Shown here piece after piece: positions 34,486 to 51,370 of a DNA stretch of 64,000 bases. Position 1 is the stretch's first letter. Every line of letters begins with the position of its first letter. The DNA is from Nitrospirota bacterium (GTDB lineage: Bacteria; Nitrospirota; UBA9217), in contig CAVVUN010000015.1 of the NCBI GenBank assembly GCA_963751455.1, positions 160,001 to 224,000 on the forward strand, read 5' to 3'. The notes below the pieces were generated by a model. It was not told the DNA's origin. It made no database searches and saw only the letters and a list, made by a program, of their open reading frames with translations. The position numbers and the translations under genes are program-made.

Positions 34486-35129
34486 AGGTTGGCTGGGACG
34501 GTGAACCAGTATTGGGGTTGGCAGAACCATGAGAAGTGATTGGTCAATCCGTCCCACCCCTTTTATATCGTTATCAGCGTCTTTACTGCCCGTGCCGCGA
34601 GCCTTCACCGGGTTGGCTTATAACCACGAGACGTGAAAAAACAATTTGGACGCGGCAAGGAGCCGAAGATTTTCTGGTCCCGCGATGCGGGAAAGGGTCA
34701 CGGATAAAGCCTTACCGATGACCGTGATCCTGATGGGTGACTGGTGCAGTGAAAAAACTGACGCCGAAACCTAAAGAAACTGCGGCAATGGTCAAGACTG
34801 ACGATGACGAAAAGGCTTGACGAGAAACGTTTCCGTTTCTCGTCACAAGATAGCTTTTTTCCCTTGACAGTGTCCTTTAAATGGGCGACCCCGATCGACG
34901 CCGAAGCGATTCCTATGGTATCCACTTGTTGTTGGTTTAACAATCTCCCTTATTTAGCCCTATAAAGATAGCCGCAAAATGGCATTTTTCCCGTCTCAGC
35001 GACCCGTGAATAGTTGAAATTGCGTTGCATTTGCATTACAAAGTATCTATTTCTGTTAGATCAGCACTTATGGCGTTATTCAATTATAGATTTTACTTTC
35101 AAAATCAAATAGTTTAAAAATTGCTAATT

Positions 35130-35145
35130 TGGCATTACACGTGCA
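35130..35145 (+). promoter_or_regulatory. Sigma-54 promoter of island operon 1
   Basis: TGGCAT-TACAC-GTGCA, GG/GC 12 nt apart; IHF-like AATCAAATAGTT upstream. Confidence 0.6.
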
Positions 35146-35190
35146 TCATATAAAATAATTAAAATTTATGGCGGTTTAAGGAGGTTAAGC

Positions 35191-35865
35191 ATGGGCAACG
35201 AACTCTTATATGAATATCTAGCTGGAAAGATTCTCCAAGATCTGATTTCCTCTGTGCCATTGGATAATAATTTGGCAAAAGAACTGAATAAATATCCAGT
35301 AATCGATCACATAAGAGATCAGGTCCAAGACGTTCATTTTAGCACTATTTCAAAACTTATTGCTGCTAAGTCTTGCTCAAAAGAAGTGAAGCAGTTAGCA
35401 GTTGGTCTCTTGCACAAGTATATTAGGGCTGAAAGACATGGGACAGAAATTAAACTTTTACTGTCTGATCTCTGGGAAACAGGTGACATGGAAGAGAAGT
35501 TTCATGTTATGTGGCGATTGCTGGATTTCGGTGACCTTGAAGAAAGCTTCCATTATGAGATGTTTGCATTTTTAAAGAGCAATAAAGATTATATTCTGTC
35601 CAAAACATTAGGTTGGTGCGGCTCTGAAGCTAAAATTCTGGACTATGCTGCCTCAAGACTAACAAACAAGTCTTTTCCAAAAACAAAATCCTGGATTTAC
35701 TTATTTATTGCCTCTCTCAGTCCTGACAAAGAGAATGCAAAAAGTCTTATTTCAAAATATGCTGATGGCGCCCAGCCTGTCCTCCGCAGAGTTGCCGATG
35801 AAATTATAGACGAACTTGACTCTTCTGAATTACAAACCTTCAACGATCAAGTTTGTTTTTGTTGA
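35191..35865 (+). CDS. Hypothetical alpha-helical protein
   Basis: AAGGAGG RBS, 224 aa. Confidence 0.7.
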   Translation: MGNELLYEYLAGKILQDLISSVPLDNNLAKELNKYPVIDHIRDQVQDVHFSTISKLIAAKSCSKEVKQLAVGLLHKYIRAERHGTEIKLLLSDLWETGDMEEKFHVMWRLLDFGDLEESFHYEMFAFLKSNKDYILSKTLGWCGSEAKILDYAASRLTNKSFPKTKSWIYLFIASLSPDKENAKSLISKYADGAQPVLRRVADEIIDELDSSELQTFNDQVCFC

Positions 35866-36116
35866 AGTCCATAAAGGATCCCAATTGTTTTTAATTTAAG
35901 CGACTTTAAAAGCATTACTAAAGATAGGTCTGATTCATCAACAATAAATGATTAATATCCGAAGGCCAAATGATCAAAAGTGACTAAATTAAAGATCTTA
36001 TTTCTATCACAGAGGGGGGCCCTACTGATTAAAAGCTCATTGATGTGTCAAACGTTCTCACCATCAACGAATAAACGGATGAAGCAGAATATCTTTTGTG
36101 AAAGCGAATTAATCCG

Positions 36117-36812
36117 ATGACCTATGAGTTCCCTGCTCTCCTCCCAAAGCTTTATAGTTTCACAGAGCCGTTTATTTTTTCAAAAATACTTTCTGATTCA
36201 AGAGTATTGGACGTAGGTTGTGGAGATGGTTATCTCACTAAAAGAATAATAATGAATACTAAGGCAAAGCAGGTCGTGGCAGTAGATATAAATGGCGACA
36301 TATTAATGAAAGCTGAAAGAACTCAGGCGGATACCAGAATAGAATATGTTCTTGGAGATGGCGAAGATTCCGAGCTATTTAAAATAATTGGTGGATTTGA
36401 TTTTATACTTCTCAGAAACACATTTCATCATTTTGATGATAAGGAAAAATTTTTAACAAATTTCTACAATCTTCTCAACAAAAGTGGTGTACTTCTAATC
36501 CTCGATTTGGACAAAGAAGCGAACTATTCCTTGCTGGGATTGCCTATTCCTTTACTGGTGACATTCTGGCAATCAGTTAAGATTAACGGTTTAATAGAAA
36601 CAACAAAAATATTATGGAATACTAAATTCTTTTTAAATAACACATTCAGAATGCACCGACATGAAGACCGGCAAAAACTTAAGCTTAGCGGGTGGCTGAC
36701 ATTCCAAGAAGTTAGCGAGAAAGTCATGAAACTTCTTCCCGGATGTAAGGTAGCTCGTTTGGGCAGCGTGTGTGGCTATGGAGGTTGTTATTATGTACTG
36801 TATCAAAAATGA
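36117..36812 (+). CDS. Class I SAM-dependent methyltransferase
   Basis: VLDVGCGDG, FDFI..NTFHH. Confidence 0.85.
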   Translation: MTYEFPALLPKLYSFTEPFIFSKILSDSRVLDVGCGDGYLTKRIIMNTKAKQVVAVDINGDILMKAERTQADTRIEYVLGDGEDSELFKIIGGFDFILLRNTFHHFDDKEKFLTNFYNLLNKSGVLLILDLDKEANYSLLGLPIPLLVTFWQSVKINGLIETTKILWNTKFFLNNTFRMHRHEDRQKLKLSGWLTFQEVSEKVMKLLPGCKVARLGSVCGYGGCYYVLYQK

Positions 36813-37601
36813 TAATATCGGTTTCTGCGCTGAAAATGTTTCCAAAACCTTCGATTCTAATAACCAGCAGGAAGTTGTTTTAAAGGGATTCGATATCACA
36901 ATTGATCGAGGCGAATTTATTTCTATTCTAGGCCTTTCCGGCATAGGGAAAAGCACCGTATTTAAAATTTTGAGCGGTCTTACAGAACCTACAGATGGTA
37001 ACGTTACTTACGGCGGTATCCCCGTTAAATGCGCATTATCGCAACGCAAATTCAGCTGTGTTTTTCAACGCCCTGTACTGGCTGATTGGAGAACCGTAAT
37101 AGAGAATGCCTTATTGCCGCTCGAAATCTTAAGACCCAAAGACAAGGCAAACATTGATATTGCAAATAACCTCCTTAAAGCAGTCGGTTTGGAGAATGAT
37201 TTGTCTAAATATCCGAGAGAATTGTCTGGGGGCATGCGGCAAAGATTGAGTCTTGCGATGGCCCTTTCATACGATCCAGAAGTTCTCTTTCTCGATGAAG
37301 CGTTTGGCGCTCTCGATGCAGTAACTCGGAGAAAGCTTCAATCTCTCCTACTAAATATCTGGAGTGTATCTAACAAGAAACAAACGGTCATTTTTATAAC
37401 ACATGATGTGAATGAAGCTTGTTTTATGGCAGATCGAATATTTATTCTGAACAGGAAACCAATTTCAGTAATAAAGGAATTGATGATCCCTTTTCCAAGA
37501 CCCGGGATTTTAGTTTATTATATTCACCAGAATTCAAGGACATTGCGGAAGAGGCGTATAAAAGCATTGAATGCAATGGAGTTGAGAAATGTGTACTGTG
37601 A
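36793..37601 (+). CDS. NitT/TauT-type ABC transporter ATPase (frameshift near 37503)
   Basis: GLSGIGKST, LSGGMRQR, LDEAFGALD, ITHD. Confidence 0.88.
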
Positions 37602-38200
37602 TTTCTGAAAATTCGATGGGGATCGCCTGGTTGATGTGTTTGAAATGGATAATTGAAAACGGCGATCAAATATTGGATGAAGATGTTAAATTAAATGAAT
37701 ATATTTCCCTTGTGTTAGATGTCAATCAACCTGATCAACTTGATTCAATAACCGAATCATTTTGGGCTTTGAAGTTCTGCGATGTTCAGCCTAAAACAAA
37801 AAATATTTTCGATTATATGTCAAGACTTAACAATTATAACGGCGTTAATCAGATTGATGTTATTCGAGATCGACTGCTAAGTAAACCCGAGACAAAATCC
37901 GCGACTGTAATAACTCTAATGCCCAGCAGTGATATTCAGAGAGTGCCATGTTTGGTATCCGCTGATTTTAAAATAAGGGGAGGAAAGTTGATAACGCAAT
38001 CTTTTTTTAGAAGTCAGGATGTATGGAACAAACAACCTTTTAATTTATTACTTCTAAAAAACGTTGCATCATTCTTAGCTAATGACCTTAATGTGAGGCT
38101 TGGGTCAATTAAACTGTACATCGCGTCTGCTCACATTTACGAGAGTGACCTTCAAGAAGCGACAACTTTCATAAAGGCAAATCATAAACATGGAATTTAA
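37589..38200 (+). CDS. Thymidylate-synthase-fold enzyme (short, divergent)
   Basis: NQID, VPCL catalytic Cys, FRSQD, QPFN, SAHIYE. Confidence 0.8.
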   Translation: MCTVISENSMGIAWLMCLKWIIENGDQILDEDVKLNEYISLVLDVNQPDQLDSITESFWALKFCDVQPKTKNIFDYMSRLNNYNGVNQIDVIRDRLLSKPETKSATVITLMPSSDIQRVPCLVSADFKIRGGKLITQSFFRSQDVWNKQPFNLLLLKNVASFLANDLNVRLGSIKLYIASAHIYESDLQEATTFIKANHKHGI

Positions 38201-38753
38201 TACTGGCCAAGTAGCTGTACTGGGCAAGGAAAAGATTAATCCGGAAATTCCGGAGCACCTCTATGCAATGGAAGAAGGTTACTTATTAGGAAAAGCACTT
38301 GGTCGAAAAAAGATAGTGGTTATTACTGGCGGGTTGGGTGGAATAATGGAAGCAGTCTCAAAAGGTGTGGCTGAATCCGGAGGTGTCTGTGCTGGCATCA
38401 TCCCTGTTTTATCCGAAGAAGAAAAGGTATTGAGAAAGCCAAATAAATATTCAACAGTCAAGATTAATACAGGGATGGATCAGCGATTGAGAATTCCGTT
38501 ACTTATTCGTTCGAGTGACGCCATTATCGTGATTTCAGGAGGCATGGGTGCGTGGCTTGAAGCAGCTTTTGCTCTGGCAAACGGACTTCCAATCATAACC
38601 TTGCCAAAAACTGGGGGAACTGCTGCGAGATTAGTATCGGAAAATCCATTTAAAGACAAAGTCCTCATTGCAAAAGATGGACTACATGCTGCTGAAATTG
38701 TGACTAATTTATTTAAAAAGGGGAATAAAGATGAAAACATTGTTGAAAAGTAA
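38190..38753 (+). CDS. LOG/SLOG family protein (TIGR00725-like)
   Basis: TGGLGGIMEAVSKG, SDAIIVISGGMGAWLE. Confidence 0.82.
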   Translation: MEFNTGQVAVLGKEKINPEIPEHLYAMEEGYLLGKALGRKKIVVITGGLGGIMEAVSKGVAESGGVCAGIIPVLSEEEKVLRKPNKYSTVKINTGMDQRLRIPLLIRSSDAIIVISGGMGAWLEAAFALANGLPIITLPKTGGTAARLVSENPFKDKVLIAKDGLHAAEIVTNLFKKGNKDENIVEK

Positions 38754-39729
38754 ACAGCTATTTGCTATCCTCTTATTTGCATTCTTCCTGGCTCTCGTTA
38801 GTTCCAATGCAAAAGCAGAGAAGCTGTCAAAAGTCAAGATCATGCTCGATTGGAAGCCAGGAGCCGAGCATTCCTTTCTTTATTTAGGACAAGAAAAGAA
38901 TATTTTCAGGGACAATGGTATTGATTTAGAAATAGTTCCAGGACAAGGTTCATCATACTCCGTTAATATGGTTGATGCAAGAAATGTTGACTTCGCTCTT
39001 TGTGCTGGCGAGTCCGCGCTACAAGGACGCAGCAGTGAACCACAGCGGAGCATTAAGGTACTTGCTATTTTCTATCCCAATACGCCAGCATCCGTTTATT
39101 CTTTAAAATCAAAAAATATTAAGAAACCGACCGATCTTTACGGCAAGAAAGTCGGTGTAATGAAAGGATCCTCTGCTTATAAGCAGTATCTAGCTTTTGT
39201 TGAAAAAGAGAACCTTGATAAGAATAATATAATTGAAATACCCTCTGCTGGAAGTATTCAAGAAATATTATCGGGAGACCTTGATGCTATGGTCCATTTT
39301 TCATTTCAACATCCTTTGCAGGTGAAGTTGAAAGGATATGGGATAAATGAAATTTTATTTAAGGATTACGGCGTAAAAGTTTACGGTCAGGGACTGATAG
39401 CGAGTGATGATACCTACAACTACAAAAAGGACTTAGCGAAACGAGTAGTTAAATCTGTAATATTATCGCTTCAATACTCATTGCAGCATCCAGAAGAAGC
39501 TTTGGGCGTATTTTTCAAGCTTTTCCCTGAACAAGATAGAGAGTACTCGAAAGCAAAACTGAACTGGGTTAATAGCTTTATCGAGCAAGGACAACACAAA
39601 GGGCAGCCTCTTGGGTATCAGGACGAAGAAGGTTGGAAAGCAACTCAATCTTATCTGTTGAGTCAGGGCCTCATCGATAAGAGTATTTCTCTAAGAAGTC
39701 TTTATTCTAACGAGTTCCTTGTAAGATGA
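38731..39729 (+). CDS. NMT1/THI5-like ABC substrate-binding protein
   Basis: Signal peptide, LDWKPGAEH, GIDLEIVPGQGS, DLYGKKVG. Confidence 0.85.
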   Translation: MKTLLKSKQLFAILLFAFFLALVSSNAKAEKLSKVKIMLDWKPGAEHSFLYLGQEKNIFRDNGIDLEIVPGQGSSYSVNMVDARNVDFALCAGESALQGRSSEPQRSIKVLAIFYPNTPASVYSLKSKNIKKPTDLYGKKVGVMKGSSAYKQYLAFVEKENLDKNNIIEIPSAGSIQEILSGDLDAMVHFSFQHPLQVKLKGYGINEILFKDYGVKVYGQGLIASDDTYNYKKDLAKRVVKSVILSLQYSLQHPEEALGVFFKLFPEQDREYSKAKLNWVNSFIEQGQHKGQPLGYQDEEGWKATQSYLLSQGLIDKSISLRSLYSNEFLVR

Positions 39730-40512
39730 AAAATATTTCGGTTAAATATTTGCTTGCTTTGTCGTTAGCCATTTCCTTATTGTTATGGGAAGGAATCGTC
39801 AGACTCTTTAATGTTTCAGCGGGCATATTCCCACCCGTCTCGATTGTCCTGGTGAAGATTTATGTCAAAAGAAATCTTTTATTCACTCACTTATCTTATA
39901 CGTTACTCGAAGATCGTCCTCGGTTTTGTCATCGGATTTATGACGGGGATAGTGCTTGCATTGATTTGTGACAGAATCACGATTATAAAAAAGATCCTTT
40001 ATCCGATACTGGTCTCCTTCCAATCTGTCCCTAAAATAGCAGTCGCGCCTCTTTTTGTTATCTGGTTCGGCTATGGGTTATTACCGAAGGTTATGATGGC
40101 TGCTATGATTTCTTTTTTTCCAGTTCTAATAAGTACTATGGCAGGATTAAGCGCTTATGATGAAGAAGTTAAAATGTTTATGGATATGCTTAATACTTCA
40201 TGGTGCCAAAGAATGTGGAAAATAAAGCTCCCTTATGCGATACCCTACATACTGACTGGCAGTAAAGTATCGATAACATTTGCAGCTGTAGGCGCTATAT
40301 TGGGTGAATTTGTGAATCCTAGCAAGGGGCTCGGGTATCTGATAGACATTGGTAAGGAAAATTTCGATACATCTTTGCAGTTTGCAGCAATTCTGCTGGT
40401 AAGCATCATGGGTTGGATCCTTTTCGAGGCCATATCTTTAATCGAGCTATTCTTCTTTAAGAAATACTCAAGATCTGTGTCCCAAGAAGGAATCGATACT
40501 CGATATGTCTAA
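39726..40512 (+). CDS. ABC transporter permease (frameshift near 39912)
   Basis: QSVPKIAVAPLFVIWFGYG, GAILGEF, GLGYLI. Confidence 0.85.
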
Positions 40513-42055
40513 TCCGAAATTAAATACAATCGCACATTGGAGGGATAAAATAAATTTTGCTTATTTGGCAAGCAGCGGCGTCGAAGACTGCGCCGAGCGA
40601 ATTACCGACATTATTGAAAGCCCTGATTTTTTGTCTTTTCTATGGAAAGAGTTTTCATATTGGCGAGCGAATATTTATACGTCAGATCCAGACGGACATT
40701 TTGAGTGCCTTCATAGGGGCATAGACAATAAGAGACTTGCTTTTCAGATCAGAGTGCCTTGGCTTTGTATTCACATGGACAATAATGGGACACTTTCGCC
40801 AAAACTAGAAAGAGCTTATAAAGTCATAAGAAACAGTGAAAAACCGCAATTAGCTGACGAGAATTTTCGAGATGAATATGAAGCAAAATTATTTGATAAG
40901 AGACAGAGAGAGGAGATTACAAGTTCAACACGGCTTTATCATTGGTACAAAAATCACTGCAAAGATATGCGCAGATTTAATGAACTTTGCATTGTAGTAA
41001 CCGAAGGGGAGATGCTCTTCTATCGACTGATGACTGATCTCGACTTTAGGGGCCAAATAACGGCGAGAGAAACGAATAAAGTGATTGAATGGATAAACGA
41101 CAATGCAAAAAATAACGATGTCATAAATCTCATATCTCCACTAAAAGTGGCCGACTTCATTAAAAGTCTTCATGGAAAAAAAATTACGTTAACTACAGAT
41201 CGGGTAGACTTAGCATGGGATACTACTAAAATTAACCCCAAACGCGAAATGACTATCTTGAAAAGCAGGAATATTGTTTTTTTCCCGTGTGGCAAATTTT
41301 ATTCGCATGACCACTTATCTGAGGTTTTTTTCTTAGGCAGCTTTTATGATACTAAAAAGATGTTGGATAATATATCTGCTATTATTGCATTGTTCTCGGA
41401 TTTAGCTTTCAAAGGAATTAGTTTATATGAGCAGAAGCTTGGTGAGGAAAAACTCATTTATGATAGGCATCATGAATTCGGCAATACCATTGCGCGGTTA
41501 CAAAGTACCTTTAATCGAAATTTATCTCCAAACCAAAAATTACGAGAAATACGAAAGAAAATAGCTCTGCTTAGGGAATGCTATTATGACTGGATAGACC
41601 CTAAGCGTCTTGAGTCAATTGAAAAGGTCGATATTTCTCAAATATTAAAAGAACTAAAGAATTTGTCGGAATCAACTCCGTATCCCAAGCATTTCAGCCA
41701 TCTCAAAAGCATTTATTATGTCAAAGCGAACAAGAGACTTCTTTCGAGTTCTATATTCGAACTTATACGTAACTCTATCAAACATACAAACGAAACACTC
41801 ATAGATAATTACCTTAAAATCAGTGCCAAGATAGAAAATAACAGAGTATTTATAACGATCTCAGATATGGCAAACAGTCTTACAGAAGAGATTTTCAAGG
41901 AATCTGCAAATAATCCTATTTTGAACCAGAACGGAGCGCATAAAGGTTTATATACTTCAAGAAAATATATCGAAAAACTTGGCGGCACTCTTTCGTTTCA
42001 TCCTAAACAGCCGAGAGGATCAATATTAATTATAACTCTTCCAGTGGAGCGATAA
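40505..42055 (+). CDS. Cytoplasmic sensor histidine kinase with unrecognised input domain
   Basis: HHEFGN H-box, ELIRNSIKH N-box, KGLYTSRKYIEKLGG; no TM helix. Confidence 0.75.
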   Translation: MSNPKLNTIAHWRDKINFAYLASSGVEDCAERITDIIESPDFLSFLWKEFSYWRANIYTSDPDGHFECLHRGIDNKRLAFQIRVPWLCIHMDNNGTLSPKLERAYKVIRNSEKPQLADENFRDEYEAKLFDKRQREEITSSTRLYHWYKNHCKDMRRFNELCIVVTEGEMLFYRLMTDLDFRGQITARETNKVIEWINDNAKNNDVINLISPLKVADFIKSLHGKKITLTTDRVDLAWDTTKINPKREMTILKSRNIVFFPCGKFYSHDHLSEVFFLGSFYDTKKMLDNISAIIALFSDLAFKGISLYEQKLGEEKLIYDRHHEFGNTIARLQSTFNRNLSPNQKLREIRKKIALLRECYYDWIDPKRLESIEKVDISQILKELKNLSESTPYPKHFSHLKSIYYVKANKRLLSSSIFELIRNSIKHTNETLIDNYLKISAKIENNRVFITISDMANSLTEEIFKESANNPILNQNGAHKGLYTSRKYIEKLGGTLSFHPKQPRGSILIITLPVER

Positions 42056-42056
42056 A

Positions 42057-43580
42057 ATGAACTTTTACAGATTCCTTGTCGTTGATGATGAAAATGATAT
42101 TCGACATAGTCTGGAAATGCTTCTTAAAAAACATTATAAAAAGTCACAAGTCTTCACTGAAAGTAACGGTGTGGATGCAATTAAAACATTAAGACATAAT
42201 AAAGTTGATCTGATTATTTCGGATATGATAATGCCTGCTATGGATGGGATGGATTTACTGCATCAGGTGAAATCGGAAATGCCTGATATTCAGTTTATTA
42301 TGATAACCGGATATGCGACAGTTGAAAGCGGCGTACGCGCTATGAAAGAGGGGGCATCTGACTATATAACGAAACCTTTTGATGAAGATGCTGTCATACT
42401 TCAAGTATCAAGATGTCTCAAAATGAAAAAATTGCAGGAAATCGATCTTAGGAATTCGGCAGCTCTTGAGGGATTAATTTTTAAGAGTAAAAAGATGAAG
42501 GAATTAACAGATGAAATTGAAAAAATTTCTGCTGAAGAAGCAGAAGTTCTAATTACGGGAGAATCAGGCGTCGGTAAAGATTTGGTGGCAAGACTCATTC
42601 ACTACAATCATAAAAGTAAGCGTAAGACTTTGCCTTTTTTGAATCAAAATTGTGCTGCAATACCTGACAGCCTTTTAGAAAGTATATTATTCGGTCACAA
42701 AAAGGGTACTTTTACAGGAGCAACTGACGATGCGGATGGGCTTTTCAAAAAGGCAGACGGGGGAACAATATTTCTGAACGAGATAGGCGATATGCCTCTT
42801 CTATTACAAGCAAAAGTTCTGAATGTAATTGAGAGCCAAGATTTTAGACCGGTAGGTGGTACAGAGAACATAAAAGTGAATGTGAGATTAATTTCTGCAA
42901 CTAACAAGGACTTGAGTGAAGAAATCGAGAAAGGTACATTTAGAAGTGATCTTTACTGGAGGATTAGTACATATCCGATAAAAATCCCAGCTCTGAGGGA
43001 AAGAAGAGAAGATATCGCAGACTTGTCAAAGCATTTTATTAAAACTATTTCTATTAATAATGGGAAAGAAATTAAAGATATTTCTTCTAATGCTCTTTCG
43101 CTTCTTGAAGCATATCCTTTCCCAGGAAATGTAAGAGAATTACGAAGTATTATTTTGCGTGCTAGCATTTCATGCAATGGTGATATGATCGAACCCGCGC
43201 ATCTCCCAGAATATATCAAATCATATAAAGAAGGTAATGCAAGTAAAAAATTTACCGATCTCTCTAATATTGGATTGGCAGACGTAGTAAAGAGTTTTCG
43301 AGCTCACGGCTCTTTCGACAAGTCAGATAAACTGGGACAGCTAGTAGAAAATATAATTGACCAAAACAAGGGCAATGTTACTGAACTCTGTAGTAAATTG
43401 AAAACCACTTCTTTAAGCTGGCAAATCGGAACTACACCTGACAAAATAAATCGCGCAGTCAATCAAAGCAATGGGAAGCTTTTCTATGCTGTTGTTGATA
43501 ACGGAAAAGTCAAAAAATGCGAGCAGAAAAGAAAAACGAAGAATTGCTTTGTCTATGCAGCCAGCAAATTAAACGACTAG
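42057..43580 (+). CDS. NtrC-family sigma-54-dependent response regulator
   Basis: REC domain, GESGVGKD, GTFTGA loop, FPGNVREL. Confidence 0.92.
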   Translation: MNFYRFLVVDDENDIRHSLEMLLKKHYKKSQVFTESNGVDAIKTLRHNKVDLIISDMIMPAMDGMDLLHQVKSEMPDIQFIMITGYATVESGVRAMKEGASDYITKPFDEDAVILQVSRCLKMKKLQEIDLRNSAALEGLIFKSKKMKELTDEIEKISAEEAEVLITGESGVGKDLVARLIHYNHKSKRKTLPFLNQNCAAIPDSLLESILFGHKKGTFTGATDDADGLFKKADGGTIFLNEIGDMPLLLQAKVLNVIESQDFRPVGGTENIKVNVRLISATNKDLSEEIEKGTFRSDLYWRISTYPIKIPALRERREDIADLSKHFIKTISINNGKEIKDISSNALSLLEAYPFPGNVRELRSIILRASISCNGDMIEPAHLPEYIKSYKEGNASKKFTDLSNIGLADVVKSFRAHGSFDKSDKLGQLVENIIDQNKGNVTELCSKLKTTSLSWQIGTTPDKINRAVNQSNGKLFYAVVDNGKVKKCEQKRKTKNCFVYAASKLND

Positions 43581-43726
43581 CAATACATTTATAATCCATT
43601 TGCTTCGCATTTGCCGCAGAAAGTTCGCTAGTAAAATAAAATAACTGCCTCTCGCACAAACCTCCATCCGCATAAGTCCTTATTTCAAAAACGATATCTC
43701 TATCCCCACTCCGATATGTTACCCCT

Positions 43727-43742
43727 TGGTACTAGCTTTGCA
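43727..43742 (+). promoter_or_regulatory. Sigma-54 promoter of island operon 2
   Basis: TGGTAC-TAGCT-TTGCA, near-consensus -24/-12. Confidence 0.75.
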
Positions 43743-43990
43743 TATAACTATGTAATTAAGTCTTCAGTTGATATTCACGTGAAGAAGTAGACTTTTTAAA
43801 AGGGGGTAAAACTAATGCATAAAATAAAAATTGATTATGGGTAGATAAAAGCGCTACCGACGGCCGTTCCAGCGGCCATCGGTAGCTGGGCAGGAAACCA
43901 TGCAGTCCCTTGTCGGTCCTACAATGAGCCCGCCGTACCGTAAATATAACATTTTTATAGTCGGCGGTCTCCAAAAAAGGAGGTTCACCC

Positions 43991-45268
43991 ATGGAACAGA
44001 TCGCTGACATTAGCAACCGGCGCATTATTAAACGGAATTCTGGACTTACCGCAACAGCAGCTGCTTTTTGCCTCGCTCCCTTCTTCTGTGATGGGGCAAT
44101 TCCAAAACGTATCGAGATCGAAGACATCGAAAAGATTTATTCCAGCCACACACCTCTCATTGTAAAACTCTTGACCGCAGATAGCGGTTGGTATGCCATC
44201 AGTGGCAAAGAATTATTCCTTACACACGAAGGCGATGCATCACAGCTGCATGTCGGCGAAATGACTTGGATGGCATCATCGCTGGCAGCAATGATGGACG
44301 GCGGGCGACATATGAAGGGAGTCATCGCCGCGAGCAAAATAATAGGGTCAGCAAGCACCTATACTCCATACCTGAAAGAAATTAAAACGATTCTCGACAG
44401 TGGCGGGATCACTCAACTGGTGGAAATCGGTCAAGGTTCCGGAGAGTGCATTTGCCAACTGCTTGCCTCGTACCCGACTGTCACTGGTTTAGCAATCGAT
44501 CTCGATCACGAAGCAGCAAAATTAACAAACAAGACCGCCAGCAAATTCGGCGTAAGTGACAGACTAACCGTAATTACCGGCGACGTGAATGACGGCTTGC
44601 CCGAGGATCACTTGTCCGGGAAGATGCTCATAATCGCGGGGTTCGTAATGCACGATTTTGTCGATATCGCCGCGGGAATCCAAACATTGAGTAGGGTAAT
44701 CCCGGTTGGCACGAGAGTCGTTCTTGCGGAGTTGGTCAGTAAGGTATCAGACGATCCGTTCGCAACCGCGATTATCGGGTTCCATTGTAAAAGTGGAAAA
44801 GATATTCCATCAACCGATCAGTGGAAGCAGATATTTCATGACGCCGGTCTTCATGTCGAAAATATCGAAAAGTACGCTGTAATGCCCGGGGCGGCAATAT
44901 TCAACCTGGTAAAATCTAATCCAACACCTCGTTTCATCCCAGCGGCGCAAAAGATATTTTCGAATCATGATGAGGAAGTTTTTACGCTAGATCTGGCCGC
45001 GCTCCAGCTACGGCACGCAGTAGAATCCGCCCTAGTGGATATGTCCCAATTTCCTGAAGGAATCAGTTCTGGTCACACTCACGACTGCGATGAGACGTAC
45101 ATCATTACTTCCGGCGTTGTCGATGTAATTGTTGATGGGGTGACCAAGCAGGTAACGGGGCCAATCGCGGTTTACATCCCTGCCGGATGCACCCATCATT
45201 GGAAGCCGGTTGATGTAAAAAAAGGCGATCATATAATCGGTTTTTTCACAAAGGGAGGTTCAAAATGA
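43991..45268 (+). CDS. SAM-dependent methyltransferase (MppJ-like) fused to a C-terminal cupin
   Basis: EIGQGSGE, FVMHDF, IGFH; cupin HTHDCDE...IPAGCTH. Confidence 0.7.
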   Translation: MEQIADISNRRIIKRNSGLTATAAAFCLAPFFCDGAIPKRIEIEDIEKIYSSHTPLIVKLLTADSGWYAISGKELFLTHEGDASQLHVGEMTWMASSLAAMMDGGRHMKGVIAASKIIGSASTYTPYLKEIKTILDSGGITQLVEIGQGSGECICQLLASYPTVTGLAIDLDHEAAKLTNKTASKFGVSDRLTVITGDVNDGLPEDHLSGKMLIIAGFVMHDFVDIAAGIQTLSRVIPVGTRVVLAELVSKVSDDPFATAIIGFHCKSGKDIPSTDQWKQIFHDAGLHVENIEKYAVMPGAAIFNLVKSNPTPRFIPAAQKIFSNHDEEVFTLDLAALQLRHAVESALVDMSQFPEGISSGHTHDCDETYIITSGVVDVIVDGVTKQVTGPIAVYIPAGCTHHWKPVDVKKGDHIIGFFTKGGSK

Positions 45269-46335
45269 TCAAGCATGCATTAAAAAAAGGGATCTTATTC
45301 AAACCTATAATCGGCGCGTCGATTCAGAATCCTTCGCTTGCGAAACTTTTTGCTCATATTTACGCGCTTGCCGGAGCTCTTCTTATAGATGTTCGAGGAG
45401 AAGCAAAAATGGTAAGGGCTGTCAGAGAGGGTATAAAGGAAGCAGGCGGATCCACAGCAGTAATAGCAAGCGTCAGCCCCATGCAGAACGATCCGCATTT
45501 TTTAAAGGCAGCCATCGACTGGATGGCTTGCGAAGGTTGCGGACAGTGTGAGGCTGTATGCCCACATGGCGCGATCAGCATTTTGGAAATCAATAAGGCG
45601 AGAGTTACAACGGAGAATTGTCGTGGTTGCGGTCATTGTTTGGACGTATGTCCGTCAACGGCCATTAAGCTGACCGATCCAGAACGTGCCGATTCGCTTC
45701 AAGGGATTGTGCGTGAATGCATGGACGCTGGAGCAGACAGTATTGAGTTTCACCTGAGCGGAATGAACGATAATGAAGTCCATTCTGTTATCAGCAGTCT
45801 GAAAGATGAAATCCGTACCATTAATAGCGGAGGTTATCCCGTTTCGATATGCGTTGGTAGCCTTCAATCTAGTCCTGCTGAGATACTCGAAGTAGTGAAA
45901 ATGCTGATCAGTCTTTTAGGAAGTGAAGGCTTCTTTATACAGGCTGACGGCGAGACAATGGCAGAGACAAAGCGTGGCTACGGTCTCCAAAGTTTAGCAC
46001 TTGTATCGCTCATTACCGGTGCTTATCCGAATGTAAGGGTTATTGCAAGCGGCGGGACGACTGAGAAGACCTGGGATGTAGCAAGAATGTTAAAGATACC
46101 GATCTCAGGCATTGGGATGGGGCTACGATCCTTTGAGGCCGTAAAACCTTACATTTTCGGTGACCAAATTTCAGATGTGACAGACGCTGTCAGCGCGGCA
46201 AGAACTCTATCGTGTCCGTTCGAATCAATGAACAATGACCACGACGAAACACTTTTCAAGGGCAGTGCGTGGCATACTTTGAATTCAAGGGAGGCATACA
46301 ATGAAACAATCATTACAGAATCCAAATGGTCTTAG
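45265..46335 (+). CDS. LdpA-like 2x[4Fe-4S] TIM-barrel protein
   Basis: FKPIIGAS..YALAGA..IDV, DPHFLKA, two CxxCxxCxxxCP, IQADG, SGGT. Confidence 0.75.
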   Translation: MIKHALKKGILFKPIIGASIQNPSLAKLFAHIYALAGALLIDVRGEAKMVRAVREGIKEAGGSTAVIASVSPMQNDPHFLKAAIDWMACEGCGQCEAVCPHGAISILEINKARVTTENCRGCGHCLDVCPSTAIKLTDPERADSLQGIVRECMDAGADSIEFHLSGMNDNEVHSVISSLKDEIRTINSGGYPVSICVGSLQSSPAEILEVVKMLISLLGSEGFFIQADGETMAETKRGYGLQSLALVSLITGAYPNVRVIASGGTTEKTWDVARMLKIPISGIGMGLRSFEAVKPYIFGDQISDVTDAVSAARTLSCPFESMNNDHDETLFKGSAWHTLNSREAYNETIITESKWS

Positions 46336-47074
46336 GATCTTTTTCGAGGAAGAGCTTTCGAAGTTCGTCACTTTCTTAAAGGTAGGCACTGAGTCTGAGG
46401 CTATGATGTTGCCATTCATAGCAATGCTGATAAACCTTGTGCGTAAGGAGAAGGTTGTTTGTAAAATTGGAGGACCTGATGCGCGCACAGACATTCATGA
46501 GATGTATCGGATCGGTATTCTTCGGTTTGTCGGTCCTATGATTGAGTCGCCCTTCGGTGTAAAAAAATTTATCGAGGCGATTACGAAAACCGTAGGATTG
46601 AGTTCAATTGAGGAGCTTACGATTAATGTCGAATCCATTACTGCATTCAACCAAATCGACGATATCCTTGCCGCTTCTAATGACCAGATCCATCGAATTA
46701 ATGTTGGCTTCAGCGATTTAGCAGCATCTGTTGGGGGCACAGTGACGGATCTGGAGCTGCTGAGAATGGCAAAAGAACTTCGAAATCGGTGCAAAATTAT
46801 CGGCAAGGAGTTCAGTTTTGGCGGAACGGTTACACCTGAGAATATTGAAAAGCGTCTTGAGTTCCTGGAACCGGATGGTTTTGAAACGAGGATGTTCGGA
46901 TTCTCTGGGACGATAGCTAATGCAGCCGTGGTGGTAAAAAAAGCTCTTGAGTTCGAGGCCGCTGTAGAAAGTTATTTCGCAGCCAATCAGCAGCGTCTCG
47001 TAAACGCAAGTATAAATCGTGCGGCATCCATTAACAAAAGATTGACAAGTGATTTTTTTACACTTGTCGCTTAA
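46301..47074 (+). CDS. HpcH/HpaI aldolase / citrate lyase family protein
   Basis: KIGGPDARTD, PMIESPFG, INVES, VGFSDL. Confidence 0.75.
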   Translation: MKQSLQNPNGLRIFFEEELSKFVTFLKVGTESEAMMLPFIAMLINLVRKEKVVCKIGGPDARTDIHEMYRIGILRFVGPMIESPFGVKKFIEAITKTVGLSSIEELTINVESITAFNQIDDILAASNDQIHRINVGFSDLAASVGGTVTDLELLRMAKELRNRCKIIGKEFSFGGTVTPENIEKRLEFLEPDGFETRMFGFSGTIANAAVVVKKALEFEAAVESYFAANQQRLVNASINRAASINKRLTSDFFTLVA

Positions 47075-47126
47075 CACACAACGACGGGGGAGGTAACGCC
47101 TCCCCCAATTATAAAAGGAGATTATC

Positions 47127-47855
47127 ATGACAAACATACTTCACTATAACGCCCCTGATTTAATGGAATTTGATAGTGTAATAACCGGCATCCGCAGTGA
47201 TGGCAGCGAAGTAATATTGGCGGAAACCTGCTTCTATAGCGAAGGCGGCGGGCAACCGAGTGATTTTGGACAAATAGATGTCAACGGTACGATATACAAA
47301 GTTACTGCAGTAAGAACCCTCGGGGACACGGTTTACCATAGCGTCGACCGTAATGTTACGAGTGGAATCGTCGGTGCAACCGTCCACGGCAGTGTAGACA
47401 AGGGCAGAAGGAAGTATCATTCTCGGCATCATAGTGCCTTGCATTTGCTGAATGCGTTTATGTTTCAGAACTTTAACGTCCGTGTGACAGGCGGGCAGGT
47501 GGGAACCCCCGGCGAGTTCAGTCGGCACGACTTTGAGCTTGATCGGGGTCTTTCACTGGAAGAACGGAGTCGTTTGGAAACATGGGTAAATCAGATCATT
47601 GCAGAAGACCGGCCTGTCACGGCAAGAATCTTTTCCGAAGAAGAAGCAAAGCTCATTCCGGGTTTCTGCCGAACACGTAACGTTGATATCCGAAAAACCA
47701 ATGGCGGAATAAGAGGAATAGAAATAGCAGGAGTCGACATCCAGGCATGTGGAGGAACTCACGTGAGCCGCACCGGAGAAATCGGTAAGTTCAGGGTTCA
47801 GAAGATTGACAACAAAGGATCGAATTTACGGCGAATCAAGATTATGCTCGCCTGA
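47127..47855 (+). CDS. alaX: Free-standing alanyl-tRNA editing protein (AlaX-M type)
   Basis: FYSEGGGQPSD, HSALH, QACGGTHV zinc motifs. Confidence 0.9.
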   Translation: MTNILHYNAPDLMEFDSVITGIRSDGSEVILAETCFYSEGGGQPSDFGQIDVNGTIYKVTAVRTLGDTVYHSVDRNVTSGIVGATVHGSVDKGRRKYHSRHHSALHLLNAFMFQNFNVRVTGGQVGTPGEFSRHDFELDRGLSLEERSRLETWVNQIIAEDRPVTARIFSEEEAKLIPGFCRTRNVDIRKTNGGIRGIEIAGVDIQACGGTHVSRTGEIGKFRVQKIDNKGSNLRRIKIMLA

Positions 47856-47875
47856 TTAAAATTAATTTCCTGGGA

Positions 47876-47912
47876 AAGGTGAGATGGGAAACCCACCTAT
47901 CTCACCTTTTTT
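47876..47912 (+). terminator. Rho-independent terminator
   Basis: AAAGGTGAGAT...ATCTCACCTTTTTT stem with U-tract. Confidence 0.75.
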
Positions 47913-48063
47913 CACATGACCAACATGATTTCAATATAACATTAATTTGCTTTTTCGAGATGTCAGAATGGAGAATTTCGATTATTCATTTGATTCGCAA
48001 AGGACGCCTTTAACCTGCCAATATATAAAAGCAACTTAACCTCTGAACACTTTAAATCTGGCT

Positions 48064-48091
48064 TGACAAAAAAATGCAAGTCTATATAATC
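48064..48091 (+). promoter_or_regulatory. Sigma-70 promoter
   Basis: TTGACA-16 nt-TATAAT upstream of the DNA methyltransferase. Confidence 0.6.
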
Positions 48092-48224
48092 GGAAATACC
48101 ATCCAAGATAGGCACTTTCCTCTCGGCCAATAACAATTAATGCGGCCACCTGTAAATGTTAAATCAGAACCTTACTGTTTATCTCAAGCATTTTAACAAG
48201 GAGAGTTGTTAAGAGAAGAGCACA

Positions 48225-49442
48225 ATGAAGAAACTCGAGAAATTACGGCCAATCCACCCGTTTCCGGCTAGAATGGCGCCGGGTATCGCCTTTGATGTTT
48301 TGGCTGAAGCAAAAAAGCCATTACGGGTTCTGGATCCCATGATGGGTTCTGGTACTGTGCTCGCTGTGGCCCGATCTAAAGGTCATCGCGCTATTGGTAT
48401 TGATATTGATCCGCTCGCTGTTCTTATTTCAAAAGTTTGGACAACTTCGGTAGATCCGGACGCTGTGCAGGACAAGGCAGTTGATGTTCTTGATCGAGCA
48501 GTAGATATCTTCGCAAGGTTACCAACCCGAAATGCATACCCTCGTGGGGCAGATCAACTGACGCGACAATTCATTACATACTGGTTTGATGATTATGCTC
48601 GGAGACAACTTACATCGCTAGTAATGGCAATAGAGCGAGTTAAGGATGATACTGTTCGCAACCTGCTCTGGTGCGCTTTCTCTCGGCTTATCATCACTAA
48701 GCAGTCGGGAGCTTCTCTCGCAATGGATCTATCTCATAGTCGGCCTCATAAGTCTTTTGCTCGTGCACCTGCTAAACCCTTCAGAAACTTTCTTGGCATG
48801 GTAAATCGCGTTGTTCCAAATTGCATCGATAAAAATTCTAAAAATCGAGGGCCAGCAACACAAACATATGAAGGGGACGCTCGCGCATTGCCGCTTGAAA
48901 GTCATTCAGTAGATTTGGTCTTGACATCTCCTCCTTATTTAAATGCATTAGATTACATCCGTTGCAGCAAATTTACATTAGTCTGGATGGGATACAGGAT
49001 TGAGGAGCTTCGACGTTTGCGAAGTCAGAGTGTCGGTACTGAATCATGCAGAGCGAAGATAGCTGACGATAAAGATATTGCTCATCTCATCACTGACTTA
49101 AAGTTACGGCCCGCTCTTGGGACAAAAGATAAAAGACCTCTTGCACGGTACATCTATGACATGCGTCTAGCCGTACACGAAGTTTCCCGCGTTCTTAAGC
49201 CGGGTGGCAGGGCCATCTATGTAATTGGTGAGAATACGATCAAGGGTACCTATATTAGAAATTCGCATATAGTGTCTGCCGTGGCAGAGCTTGCTGGGCT
49301 TAGTCTCATTGAGCGACGTGTACGAAGATTACCAGCAAATCGGCGTTACCTTCCGCCGCCGACGTCACGTCATAGCGTTGCTGCGCTAGATGCACGAATG
49401 CGAAGTGAAGTGATATTGTCATTTAAAGGAGTTGTGCCTTAG
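48225..49442 (+). CDS. Site-specific DNA amino-methyltransferase (probably m4C)
   Basis: HPFPARM, LDPMMGSGT, TSPPY. Confidence 0.88.
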   Translation: MKKLEKLRPIHPFPARMAPGIAFDVLAEAKKPLRVLDPMMGSGTVLAVARSKGHRAIGIDIDPLAVLISKVWTTSVDPDAVQDKAVDVLDRAVDIFARLPTRNAYPRGADQLTRQFITYWFDDYARRQLTSLVMAIERVKDDTVRNLLWCAFSRLIITKQSGASLAMDLSHSRPHKSFARAPAKPFRNFLGMVNRVVPNCIDKNSKNRGPATQTYEGDARALPLESHSVDLVLTSPPYLNALDYIRCSKFTLVWMGYRIEELRRLRSQSVGTESCRAKIADDKDIAHLITDLKLRPALGTKDKRPLARYIYDMRLAVHEVSRVLKPGGRAIYVIGENTIKGTYIRNSHIVSAVAELAGLSLIERRVRRLPANRRYLPPPTSRHSVAALDARMRSEVILSFKGVVP

Positions 49443-49492
49443 AAAATTATTAACAAGACCTAGGGCAATAAGCACGTATCTATCATGAGTTT

Positions 49493-51370
49493 ATGATGGA
49501 GAATATAAAAATGGATTTTAACTTAAATAGCTTAAAACAAGAAACAGAAATTGGTCATCGCTACGAAAAGCGGATTGCTTATCTTGTCAATAATGGGCAA
49601 GAAGTCGAAAGAATTAAAATCGTTGTTGAAACGGCAATAGATAATATCAAAAAAGGTCAAAAATCATTCGTTATCTACGGTGAACCTCAAAGTGGAAAGA
49701 CAGAAATGATGATTGCCCTGACAGCAAAGTTACTTGATGAAGGGCATAAAATCATTCTCGTCTTACTTAATGATAGTGTTCAATTACTGGGTCAGAACCT
49801 CGAACGTTTTCAACGCTCTGGCCTGTCACCATCACCTAAGAAATTCAGTGAAATATTAACTCCAGAAGTAAAGATTGGAGATAGACAGTGGATTATATTT
49901 TGTAAAAAAAATGCCAAAGATTTATATAAGCTAATTCTGAAAATTGAAGGTCGTAAAAGTCGTGTCGTTGTGGACGATGAGGCTGATTATGCAACGCCAA
50001 ACTCAAAAATTAACAAAAAAGAGAAAAGTAAAATAAACGAATTGACGGAGTCGTTAATTGGAAATGAAGGTATATACATTGGGGTCACAGCGACTCCGGC
50101 TAGACTTGATTTGAACAGAACTCATAAAAACCAAAATGAATATTGGATAGATTTTCCGCCACACTCTAATTATGTAGGGCAGGATATATTTTTCCCTGTG
50201 TCTGTTGAGAATCCAAAGTTCGGCCTATCATTTCTTTCCGATACGGGCGATCTTCCAAGACATCTTCGAGAATCGTTATTCCGCTTTGTTGTGGATGTGG
50301 CATACTTGAACATCGAGGTAAACGAGCGTGAGAAAAATTATTCTATGTTAATTCACACAAGCGGTAAAAAAAATGATCACATTGTGGATTATAAGCAAGT
50401 AATTAAAATATTTGAAACACTTCGTGATGACAAAAATAATAATCACGAATCGTATTATAAAAAAATATGGGAAACAGCAGCCTCAATATATCCAGAAAAG
50501 AAAAGCGAAATCGTAAAGTATATTATCGCTAATTGTGACCGCAATAACGTTGTGGTGATGAATAGCGATAAAGAGGTGAATGCTGCAGATAATAGAACCG
50601 CGACCGATCCTTCGGCTCCTTTTACGATAATCATAGGAGGAAATATTGTATCACGCGGTGTGACGTTTAATAATTTACTTTTAATGTTCTTTACGAGAGA
50701 TGTTAAGCATAAGCTCCAACAAGACACGTATATTCAGAGAGCAAGAATGTTTGGATCTCGCAAATCCTACCTAGGCTATTTTACATTAGTGATTCCGAAA
50801 ACATTATTCCTCGATTGGCAGCGATGCTTTATTTTTCACAGACTATCGCTCGAGGCAAGAAAACAAAATAATAGATCGCCAGTATGGCTTGATGGTGAAA
50901 GAATCACGGCCGCTGCAAGCACAAGTATTGATAAAACAAATATCGTTATAGACAAGGGTGAGATGAGTTTTGATTTATTCGATTATGACGAGGTCGGAAT
51001 TGCTCACATTTTAGATGAGAATATGTCAGCGTTAGGGAAGATAAAAGCTCTGAATGGACTGCTCGGCAAGCCGTGTTTGCCTGATTATTTAGTAAACTAC
51101 ATGGAAAGTTTTTGTCCCTCAGGAGATGACTCGATCGCTGTACATCATCCGAAAAGCATTGCGGGCTACGCTGACAAAAAAGGGGAAATTGATAAGGCAA
51201 CAATTACACGTACAAAGGGTTTTATCGGGGACAATCAACTTGAGCTTGGGAAGTATCCGAATGCGATTCATCATATTAACATTCTTTTTAATAACATAGG
51301 TAAAGCGCGTATTTTCTACAAATATCAGGGCAATATAAGATTTTTAAAGACCGCAAAGAAAAATGATTAG
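49493..51370 (+). CDS. Z1-domain protein with SF2 helicase-like ATPase
   Basis: GEPQSGKT, DDEAD, VTATPA, SMLIHTS, GGNIVSRGVT, QRARMFG. Confidence 0.8.
   Translation: MMENIKMDFNLNSLKQETEIGHRYEKRIAYLVNNGQEVERIKIVVETAIDNIKKGQKSFVIYGEPQSGKTEMMIALTAKLLDEGHKIILVLLNDSVQLLGQNLERFQRSGLSPSPKKFSEILTPEVKIGDRQWIIFCKKNAKDLYKLILKIEGRKSRVVVDDEADYATPNSKINKKEKSKINELTESLIGNEGIYIGVTATPARLDLNRTHKNQNEYWIDFPPHSNYVGQDIFFPVSVENPKFGLSFLSDTGDLPRHLRESLFRFVVDVAYLNIEVNEREKNYSMLIHTSGKKNDHIVDYKQVIKIFETLRDDKNNNHESYYKKIWETAASIYPEKKSEIVKYIIANCDRNNVVVMNSDKEVNAADNRTATDPSAPFTIIIGGNIVSRGVTFNNLLLMFFTRDVKHKLQQDTYIQRARMFGSRKSYLGYFTLVIPKTLFLDWQRCFIFHRLSLEARKQNNRSPVWLDGERITAAASTSIDKTNIVIDKGEMSFDLFDYDEVGIAHILDENMSALGKIKALNGLLGKPCLPDYLVNYMESFCPSGDDSIAVHHPKSIAGYADKKGEIDKATITRTKGFIGDNQLELGKYPNAIHHINILFNNIGKARIFYKYQGNIRFLKTAKKND

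Follow-up and report, generated by a model that had tools for sequence, protein, structure and literature searches.

In LuxI/LuxR quorum sensing a synthase and its receptor are encoded together, feed back positively on their own expression and drive output operons; the Lsr operon for autoinducer AI-2 places an ATP-binding cassette (ABC) importer and its binding protein in one unit with an intracellular sensor; and in plant cytokinin signalling a LOG-fold enzyme releases a modified base that a membrane histidine kinase senses through a CHASE domain. The pathways to the antimetabolites bacimethrin and mildiomycin (MilA/MilB, BcmA-type) combine an enzyme of the thymidylate synthase (TS) family with a base-releasing N-glycosidase, a methyltransferase that uses S-adenosylmethionine (SAM) and an ABC transporter (PMC12345177). 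Here we describe a locus that seems to bring the two kinds of system together, on 64,000 nucleotides from a Nitrospirota bacterium (GTDB lineage Bacteria; Nitrospirota; UBA9217; assembly GCA_963751455.1, contig CAVVUN010000015.1, positions 160,001 to 224,000 of the forward strand); this whole stretch is called the window. A nine-gene run on one strand (operon 1, 35191-43580) encodes nucleotide-type enzymes, an ABC transporter, a soluble histidine kinase and a sigma-54 activator, and is followed by a four-gene run (operon 2, 43991-47855). Operon 1 and two sigma-54-type promoters form a conserved cassette with exchangeable cargo. We favour, with a probability of about 0.45, the reading that the cassette makes its own pyrimidine signal, which is released, re-imported and sensed and so autoinduces both the cassette and the cargo.

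Conservation of operon 1 and exchange of its cargo

A scan of a genome collection with an alignment of homologues of the TS-like enzyme returned 14 loci. At one of them (L017) all nine genes of operon 1 stand intact and in the same order, at 56-75% identity to the window; the remaining 13 share with the cassette no more than a distant TS-like gene, in different surroundings. Across all nine genes, identity between the window and L017 is 0.42-0.52 at the third codon position and 0.77-0.92 at the second, a pattern that shows purifying selection on every gene of the operon. A metagenome scan gave seven more loci, three of them with cassette genes: L010, on a contig cut at both ends, has the ATPase, TS-like, SLOG, binding protein, permease and kinase genes and the start of the activator gene; L011 runs from a fusion of the methyltransferase MT1 and the ATPase through the binding protein, permease and TS-like genes to a truncated SLOG gene; and L014 is nearly identical to L011, with the SLOG gene whole. 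The cassette is known, whole or in part, from four independent loci, the window included, and contig sizes common to the closest TS-like matches and the SLOG matches (15136, 11700, 3400 and 2565) suggest two further ones. The co-conservation of operon 1 genes on which the first-pass annotation, made from the DNA alone, had staked its proposal is therefore borne out: L017 has the operon complete, and L010 and L011/L014 have parts of it. Transporter genes are present in all three loci with enough DNA, with 51-72% identity between their binding proteins.

Behind P2, the promoter after the activator gene, L017 carries a small open reading frame (ORF) and genes for a lipoprotein-like protein, a membrane protein, a protein without assigned function, an AAA ATPase and a DegT aminotransferase (L017 8740-13086; L032 8740-14609); three of these cargo genes have no Pfam hit, and none is related to operon 2. 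Because the cargo of L017 differs behind the same P2, the unit is operon 1 with both promoters, and operon 2, earlier taken to be a fixed part of the system, is exchangeable cargo. The L017 contig comes from a bin (G061) that is labelled as an archaeon and looks mixed, its contigs differing in GC content and genes and including sigma-54 activators.

In a sample of 400 genomes from the phylum of the host, a profile of the binding protein gave a single match, of 23% identity and in another context, and no cassette. Since the cassette was not found in these genomes and is low in GC, horizontal transfer is indicated. The TS-like gene has only weak matches in relatives (8 of 60, with E values of at least 1.6e-7), and viral contigs gave no relative of the TS-like or the binding protein. 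Plasmids gave two distant TS matches, three aldolase matches, one of which was examined and lies in an organic-acid cluster, and no match to the LdpA-like protein of operon 2.

Promoters, the shared upstream box and the island

The first-pass annotation had placed a -24/-12 promoter before each operon, and a weighted consensus of the sigma-54 motif agrees, ranking the two sites (P1 and P2) at the top of the window, with equivalents in L017 (Table 1). Sites that score as high occur at 0.026 per kilobase (kb) genome-wide, and the two best sites in the 13 kb of L017 lie, as in the window, before orf1 and after the activator gene. Counting matches to a strict sigma-54 pattern was rejected as evidence, because it gave 4 in the window against 3.29 expected and missed P1; ranking and conservation were used instead. 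The host encodes RpoN.

Upstream of all four promoters (P1 and P2 of the window and of L017) stands the same six-base core, 102-119 bases away, which chance places in that band in about 1% of shuffled regions. With a matrix built from the L017 P1 box alone, the window P2 ranks first of 482 sigma-54-like sites of the host, a result obtained with two boxes that are not positionally homologous; with both L017 boxes, P2 ranks first and P1 third of the 482. No wider regulon is seen: with a four-site matrix, a scan that is circular for the two window sites themselves, no other of the 482 host sites comes near them (next best 11.3, against 28.5). Past the core of the P2 box the DNA of the window soon ceases to resemble that of L017, the likeness ending at 43612. 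The shared box is presumably read by the cassette's own activator.

Table 1. Features of the cassette, its cargo and the adjoining unit, in window coordinates
Feature	Position	Strand	Remarks
P1 upstream box, candidate activator-binding site	35017-35042	+	core 35027, 102 bases before sigma-54 site
P1, sigma-54-type -24/-12 site	35129-35145	+	tied second-best in window; equivalent site in L017
orf1, 224 residues, no Pfam family	35191-35865	+	one homologous cluster found, from L017 contig
MT1, class I SAM methyltransferase	36117-36812	+	family scan; fused to ATPase in L011
ABC ATPase, SsuB/TauB type	36793-37608	+	one-base frameshift at about 37503 replaces last ~30 residues
TS-like enzyme	37589-38200	+	Cys121, Arg141, Ser142, Asp144, Asn152, His182, Tyr184 kept; Lys103-Ser104 at Arg-Arg pair
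SLOG cluster-4/TIGR00725 protein, predicted nucleotide phosphoribohydrolase	38190-38753	+	
NMT1/THI5-family binding protein	38731-39729	+	N-terminal hydrophobic signal segment
ABC permease	39726-40512	+	one-base frameshift at about 39910 severs N-terminal segment
Soluble histidine kinase	40505-42055	+	rare sensor domain, predicted GAF/LuxR-ligand-domain fold; His323; degenerate G1 box
Receiver-AAA+ sigma-54 activator	42057-43580	+	Asp56; GAFTGA-type loop at 217
P2 upstream box	43597-43622	+	core 43607
P2, sigma-54-type -24/-12 site	43726-43742	+	best in window; equivalent site best in L017
Operon 2 structured leader	43754-43990	+	9-codon ORF 43815-43844; 14-pair hairpin 43853-43886; z -3.57
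MT2, SgvM/MppJ-type metal-dependent alpha-keto acid C-methyltransferase fused to cupin	43991-45268	+	His221, His265
LdpA-like protein	45265-46335	+	two CxxCxxCxxxC [4Fe-4S] motifs
HpcH/citrate-lyase-family aldolase-like protein	46301-47074	+	weak Pfam hit; named homologue in Ilyobacter
Stand-alone AlaXM-type tRNA deacylase	47127-47855	+	HxxxH and CxxxH motifs
Intrinsic terminator of operon 2	47877-47913	+	hairpin 47877-47907 with U run; folding z -4.5
Restriction-modification-like trio (N4/N6 DNA methylase, Z1-domain helicase, small nuclease-like gene)	48063-51878	+	12/12 sigma-70 site

Both operons lie in a low-GC island. Its flanks have a GC content of about 0.52, operon 1 has 0.376 and operon 2 has 0.472, and a third unit, at 48225-51878, stands at 0.401. 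The earlier description of an AT-rich block with exactly two operons holds for the two runs of genes and fails on their number, as the restriction-like trio is part of the same island. To the left of the island lies an IS110 transposase and to the right repeated transposase-like DNA. Other elements of the first-pass annotation stand: most operon 1 genes overlap (at five of the eight junctions as called, six with the true permease start at 39726), operon 2 is a run of four genes closed by a terminator hairpin, and family scans confirm the gene families it named, with the one correction that its LOG is a SLOG cluster-4/TIGR00725 protein. Rfam gave no match, including to a thiamine pyrophosphate (TPP) riboswitch, in the window, L032, L011 or L010, and no PADLOC model fits the TS-like, SLOG, binding or kinase proteins.

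The enzymes of operon 1

The TS-like enzyme keeps the equivalents of the catalytic Cys of ThyA and of its Arg166/Ser167/Asp169, Asn177 and His207/Tyr209. The phosphate clamp Arg126'-Arg127' of ThyA is replaced, by Lys-Ser in 50 of 61 homologues and by Lys-Ala in 5, with 6 unscored. The enzyme falls below the NCBIfam cut-off for ThyA (best 112.7 against 174.55 bits), and its family profile matches MilA, a hydroxymethylase of cytidine monophosphate (CMP), about as well as the best TS. In MilA, Lys133 and Ala176 set the preference for ribose, the A176S change shifts it towards deoxy-CMP (dCMP) with some CMP activity retained, and Asp versus Asn tells cytosine from uracil substrates (PMC5175136). 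Lys103 of the TS-like enzyme aligns with MilA Lys133, so that of the MilA set Lys133/Ala176/Asp186 the Lys is kept, with Ser and Asn at the other two positions; given these three residues, the predicted substrate is therefore of the uridine or deoxyuridine monophosphate (UMP, dUMP) type, with a relaxed choice of sugar. In the tree the six TS proteins of cassette type group together (6 of 61 rows, support 100/99), two of them having been placed in the cassette by similarity and shared contig size only. The wider Lys-Ser family (L018-L030) occurs mostly in genomes of the candidate phyla radiation (CPR) and of DPANN type, beside genes that, read by eye from ORF starts, resemble HAM1-type pyrophosphatases, QueC-like enzymes, dCTP deaminases and nucleotide kinases; these neighbourhoods possibly represent an undescribed modified-nucleotide pathway.

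The SLOG protein passes the TIGR00725 cut-off (107.5 against 106.9) and lies far under those of the cytokinin LOG families (31.8 of 96.35 for TIGR00730; 20.1 of 300 for NF058542). It shares with LOG-fold hydrolases an Arg and a Glu position, which we take to be catalytic, and its subfamily comprises 19 clusters at E <= 1e-30. For orf1, language-model features give a HEAT/ARM-like fold as a lead only. The stretch between orf1 and MT1 (35809-36116) is absent from L017 and unique in the genome, and is perhaps the remnant of a small gene. A sequencing error that splits a single gene into MT1 and the ATPase was considered and rejected, the same out-of-frame overlap being present in L017. In L011 (1644-3170) the small-molecule methyltransferase and the ABC ATPase are naturally fused, tying modification to transport.

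The host has two ThyX matches (G000 C3:6045-6638 and C15:1683-2252; one of the two matches contains an internal stop) and, of the ThiC family, two genes (C15:1664060 and C9:79466), so housekeeping does not require the TS-like or NMT1 genes. Synthesis of deoxythymidine monophosphate (dTMP) or salvage of thiamine as the ordinary role of the locus was rejected on these grounds, and for want of any Rfam element in the DNA scanned.

The transporter and the state of this copy

The nearest solved relatives of the binding protein are 4nmy and a binder of formyl-aminopyrimidine, a precursor of hydroxymethylpyrimidine (HMP). Compared with L017, the window has lost one base at about 37503, in the C-terminus of the ATPase, and gained one at about 39910, in the N-terminus of the permease. 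A control search found no candidate frameshift in 79 genes and 30,306 aligned residues, with 12 further matches that contain stops set aside (0 of 90 in a first pass), and a general assembly error as the cause of both is disfavoured. As the control genes show no frameshift, the two are probably real, and the importer, taken as intact in the first-pass annotation, is probably impaired in this copy.

Kinase and activator

The kinase, described earlier as lacking transmembrane segments, indeed has a hydrophobicity maximum of 1.52, with no segment above 1.6. Its N-terminal 330 residues find matches in only 8 of 1.84 billion representative proteins; five of the eight (P0072-P0076) have divergent, degenerate kinase-like C-termini with no Pfam hit. 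A first model of the sensor from 3 sequences was poor (predicted local distance difference test, pLDDT, 57), and one with nine sequences reached 86. In a wide VIA fold search the domains that bind LuxR autoinducers (RhlR, Z 9.0, root-mean-square deviation 3.5, 159 aligned; LasR, 8.3; CepR2, 8.1) tied with GAF domains (a phytochrome GAF, Z 8.6, deviation 4.0, 163 aligned; another, 8.1), and language-model features likewise give GAF leads. The modelled fold supports a soluble small-molecule sensor, GAF-like with large insertions, and leaves its ligand unnamed.

The activator has the features of the NtrC type, namely a receiver Asp, an AAA+ domain with a GAFTGA-type loop, and an adjoining kinase with an H box. 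It lacks a Fis-type helix-turn-helix (HTH), as judged from the absence of an HTH_8 hit. Its C-terminal domain (43240-43580, + strand) is nonetheless well conserved in L017 and is possibly an undescribed DNA-binding domain.

The cargo of operon 2

Of solved structures, MT2 comes closest to 8ftv/8ftr, with residue numbers that fit SgvM His244 and His296, and to MppJ. His221 and His265 of MT2 align with these two SgvM residues, so that both metal histidines of SgvM/MppJ-type methyltransferases (PMC10502145) are kept. In the Mar and Stn pathways a C-methyltransferase, a cupin epimerase and an aminotransferase together yield beta-methyl amino acids (PMC4742848), and clustered stand-alone AlaX genes mark pathways to non-canonical amino acids (PMC13149037). 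To judge from its gene families, operon 2 would lead to a beta-methylated analogue of a keto or amino acid, against which AlaX would protect the producer; tblastn with AlaX gave no other match in the host at E <= 1e-8. For the aldolase-like protein no solved relative was found.

In the relatives scanned, MT2 was found in 0 of 400, the LdpA-like protein in 1 of 300 and the aldolase in 1 of 400, the last two each in another context. The LdpA-like gene of a relative (L051, 786-3182) stands between a sugar aminotransferase-like gene, a gene for a HAD hydrolase and an aldolase-like gene, a setting that hints that non-cyanobacterial LdpA proteins are enzymes. The leader of operon 2 is single-copy in the genome and without Rfam match, and its 9-codon ORF is preceded by a purine-rich stretch; it is a possible attenuator.

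A proposed circuit and its alternatives

From the architecture, the conservation, the promoters, the shared box and the swap of cargo, all of which can be read in the DNA itself, we infer every chemical and regulatory step of the following circuit. The TS-like enzyme would add a one-carbon group, methyl or hydroxymethyl, to C5 of UMP or dUMP, the SLOG protein would free the base from the nucleotide, and MT1 would methylate the freed base. The base would then leave the cell, be recaptured by the NMT1-type ABC importer and bind the GAF-like domain of the soluble kinase, leading to phosphorylation of the activator, which, from the shared box some 100-120 bases upstream, would drive P1 in positive feedback and P2 for the cargo. 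In the window, the aldolase and the LdpA-like protein would build a skeleton that MT2-cupin methylates and epimerises, an aminotransferase of the host would complete the beta-methylated analogue, and AlaX would clear mischarged tRNA. The shared box and the small-molecule-binding fold of the sensor are compatible with such a loop of making, importing and sensing. The fuller claim, of a new class of cell-to-cell signal in which a modified pyrimidine base read by a new family of soluble GAF-like kinases, a portable cassette and an open sigma-54 promoter place an undescribed beta-methyl amino acid antimetabolite under density control, is more doubtful than the loop itself and is put forward only tentatively.

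Several findings weigh against the circuit. No exporter is encoded in the cassette, and in the window the ATPase and the permease are both frameshifted, against none of the 79 control genes. Ser142 of the TS-like enzyme favours deoxyribose, and thymine, which would be a poor private signal, is therefore a possible product. L011 has neither kinase nor activator, with 5.8 kb downstream covered, and no sigma-54 site in the upstream DNA covered. The G1 box of the kinase is degenerate in the window and in L017 and canonical in L010 and P0071; Foldseek returned nothing at E <= 0.001 with either model of the sensor, and the fold scores of Z 7-9 are middling for a model whose fold would in any case not show a ligand. 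The shared box is short, matrices built from one site place the window P1 only 16th and 14th among the 482, and the host encodes some 30 further sigma-54 activators. On the side of the cargo, operon 2 has no pyridoxal phosphate (PLP) aminotransferase in Pfam and NCBIfam scans, no second copy of it was found in genome relatives and plasmids, and the cupin matches solved structures weakly (7eqk, E 2e-4; 6j4b, presumably MarH, 4e-4).

The most serious competitor, in our view unlikely, sees in operon 1 a bacimethrin-like pathway to an antivitamin or antimetabolite, in which a mimic of HMP or thymine serves as a weapon, the ABC transporter handles the product and the kinase and activator time its production, along with that of other offensive cargo, by some other cue. 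It would account for the enzyme classes and the ABC transporter, which are those of bacimethrin clusters (PMC12345177), for the HMP-precursor binder among the nearest solved relatives of the binding protein, and for a window cargo that resembles another antimetabolite pathway with self-protection; and L011, with enzymes and transporter and no sensor, means that the core can stand without sensing. However, the position that sets base specificity in the TS-like enzyme holds Asn instead of Asp, and a product of the cytosine or HMP type is therefore not expected; family scans of the 13 genes found neither ThiD nor thiaminase; an importer that depends on a binding protein suits uptake more than export; and the cargo of L017 (lipoprotein, membrane protein, AAA ATPase, DegT aminotransferase) is no obvious weapon.

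The direction of transport also speaks for a cassette that scavenges or detoxifies a foreign modified base or nucleotide, such as phage-modified bases or competitors' analogues, and is induced by that substrate rather than by density; the compound would be taken up, detected by the kinase and converted by the SLOG protein, the TS-like enzyme and MT1. An importer, a soluble sensor and a sigma-54 activator are the usual layout of a catabolic operon, the lack of an exporter needs no explanation there, and distant relatives of the TS-like gene lie in nucleotide-handling clusters at 13 of the 14 genome loci, their neighbours being judged by eye from ORF starts. Yet enzymes of the TS family and SAM-dependent ones add groups rather than degrade, neither a TPP riboswitch nor another Rfam element occurs in the window or the three loci scanned, the host makes its own HMP and dTMP, and P2 drives unrelated, exchangeable cargo that a salvage operon does not need; we rate salvage somewhat below the antivitamin. 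Least probable of all, and in our judgement quite improbable, is a signal that stays inside the cell, where a nucleotide pool disturbed by infection or starvation would give a second messenger read by the kinase, the transporter being incidental. The kinase is soluble, the island adjoins a restriction-like trio and transposases, the transporter is broken in the window beside intact enzymes and regulators, and SLOG domains are known from nucleotide-signalling defence systems. Nevertheless an incidental transporter would hardly be kept in all three loci with enough DNA, with its binding protein as conserved as stated above, nor MT1 be fused to its ATPase at one locus, and PADLOC has no model for the proteins named earlier. 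Autoinduction by a self-made pyrimidine remains the reading that we prefer.

Significance

If the circuit is real, a nucleobase-derived signal would join the short list of bacterial autoinducer chemistries, as a bacterial counterpart of cytokinin logic in which a LOG-fold enzyme frees a base and a histidine kinase reads it; confirmation of the signal would make the system categorically new. Three orphan groups, namely the TS-like clade, the SLOG cluster-4/TIGR00725 proteins and the thiamine-independent NMT1 binding protein, would gain testable substrates. With the promoter at its end, behind which the cargo varies between genomes, the cassette is in this sense a plug-in regulator found in nature. 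The rival explanations, too, predict a new modified base, and on any of them operon 2 would be a new pathway to a non-canonical amino acid, giving the non-cyanobacterial LdpA-like protein an enzymatic role.

Comparison with described systems

We found no description of this arrangement in the full-text literature, a search outside which most subscription journals lie, so that a prior mention is possible. With the bacimethrin and mildiomycin pathways the cassette shares the four classes of protein named at the outset (PMC12345177) and the MilA-type Lys at the Arg126' position; it differs in the uracil-type Asn, the deoxy-type Ser and a SLOG protein in place of the MilB-type hydrolase, has no ThiD2 or thiaminase in the 13 genes scanned, and adds its own kinase, sigma-54 activator and second promoter. 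Like ThiXYZ salvage it pairs an NMT1/THI5 binding protein with ABC partners, though with no TPP riboswitch in the window and loci scanned and no thiamine genes among the 13.

The cargo of the window invites a comparison of its own. With MarI-MarH-MarG, StnQ1-StnK3-StnR, SgvM and MppJ, operon 2 shares a keto-acid C-methyltransferase with both histidines, together with a cupin domain, here a weak match; unlike the Mar and Stn cassettes it fuses the two, lacks the aminotransferase and has LdpA-like, aldolase-like and AlaX genes alongside. A stand-alone AlaX ends this biosynthetic-looking operon as in the AlaX-marked clusters (BesG, AlfB; PMC13149037), whereas LdpA, aldolase and methyltransferase have 0 occurrences in the main text of that paper.

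In its regulation the cassette resembles LuxI/LuxR systems by encoding a putative synthase with its receptor, by its predicted positive feedback and output operons, and by a predicted sensor fold tied between LuxR-ligand and GAF domains. It departs from them in having three nucleotide enzymes, an importer and a relay from kinase to sigma-54, and no LuxI-type synthase or LuxR HTH among the 13 genes in Pfam and NCBIfam scans. The Lsr operon has the same union of importer, binding protein and intracellular sensor, with another transporter family, predicted ligand and regulator class, and the cassette includes the synthesis genes within the operon. As in cytokinin signalling, a LOG-fold enzyme would release a modified base sensed by a histidine kinase, here with a predicted pyrimidine, a SLOG cluster-4 protein and a soluble GAF-like sensor in place of the membrane CHASE one. 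With NtrC-type systems the cassette shares the receiver-AAA+ activator, the -24/-12 promoters and the RpoN of the host, the differences being the missing HTH_8 hit and the G1 box that is degenerate in the window and L017. By these likenesses and differences the cassette falls outside the ThyA, bacimethrin, LuxI/R, cytokinin LOG and ThiXYZ systems, and it may best be seen as a blend of bacimethrin chemistry with the logic of quorum sensing.

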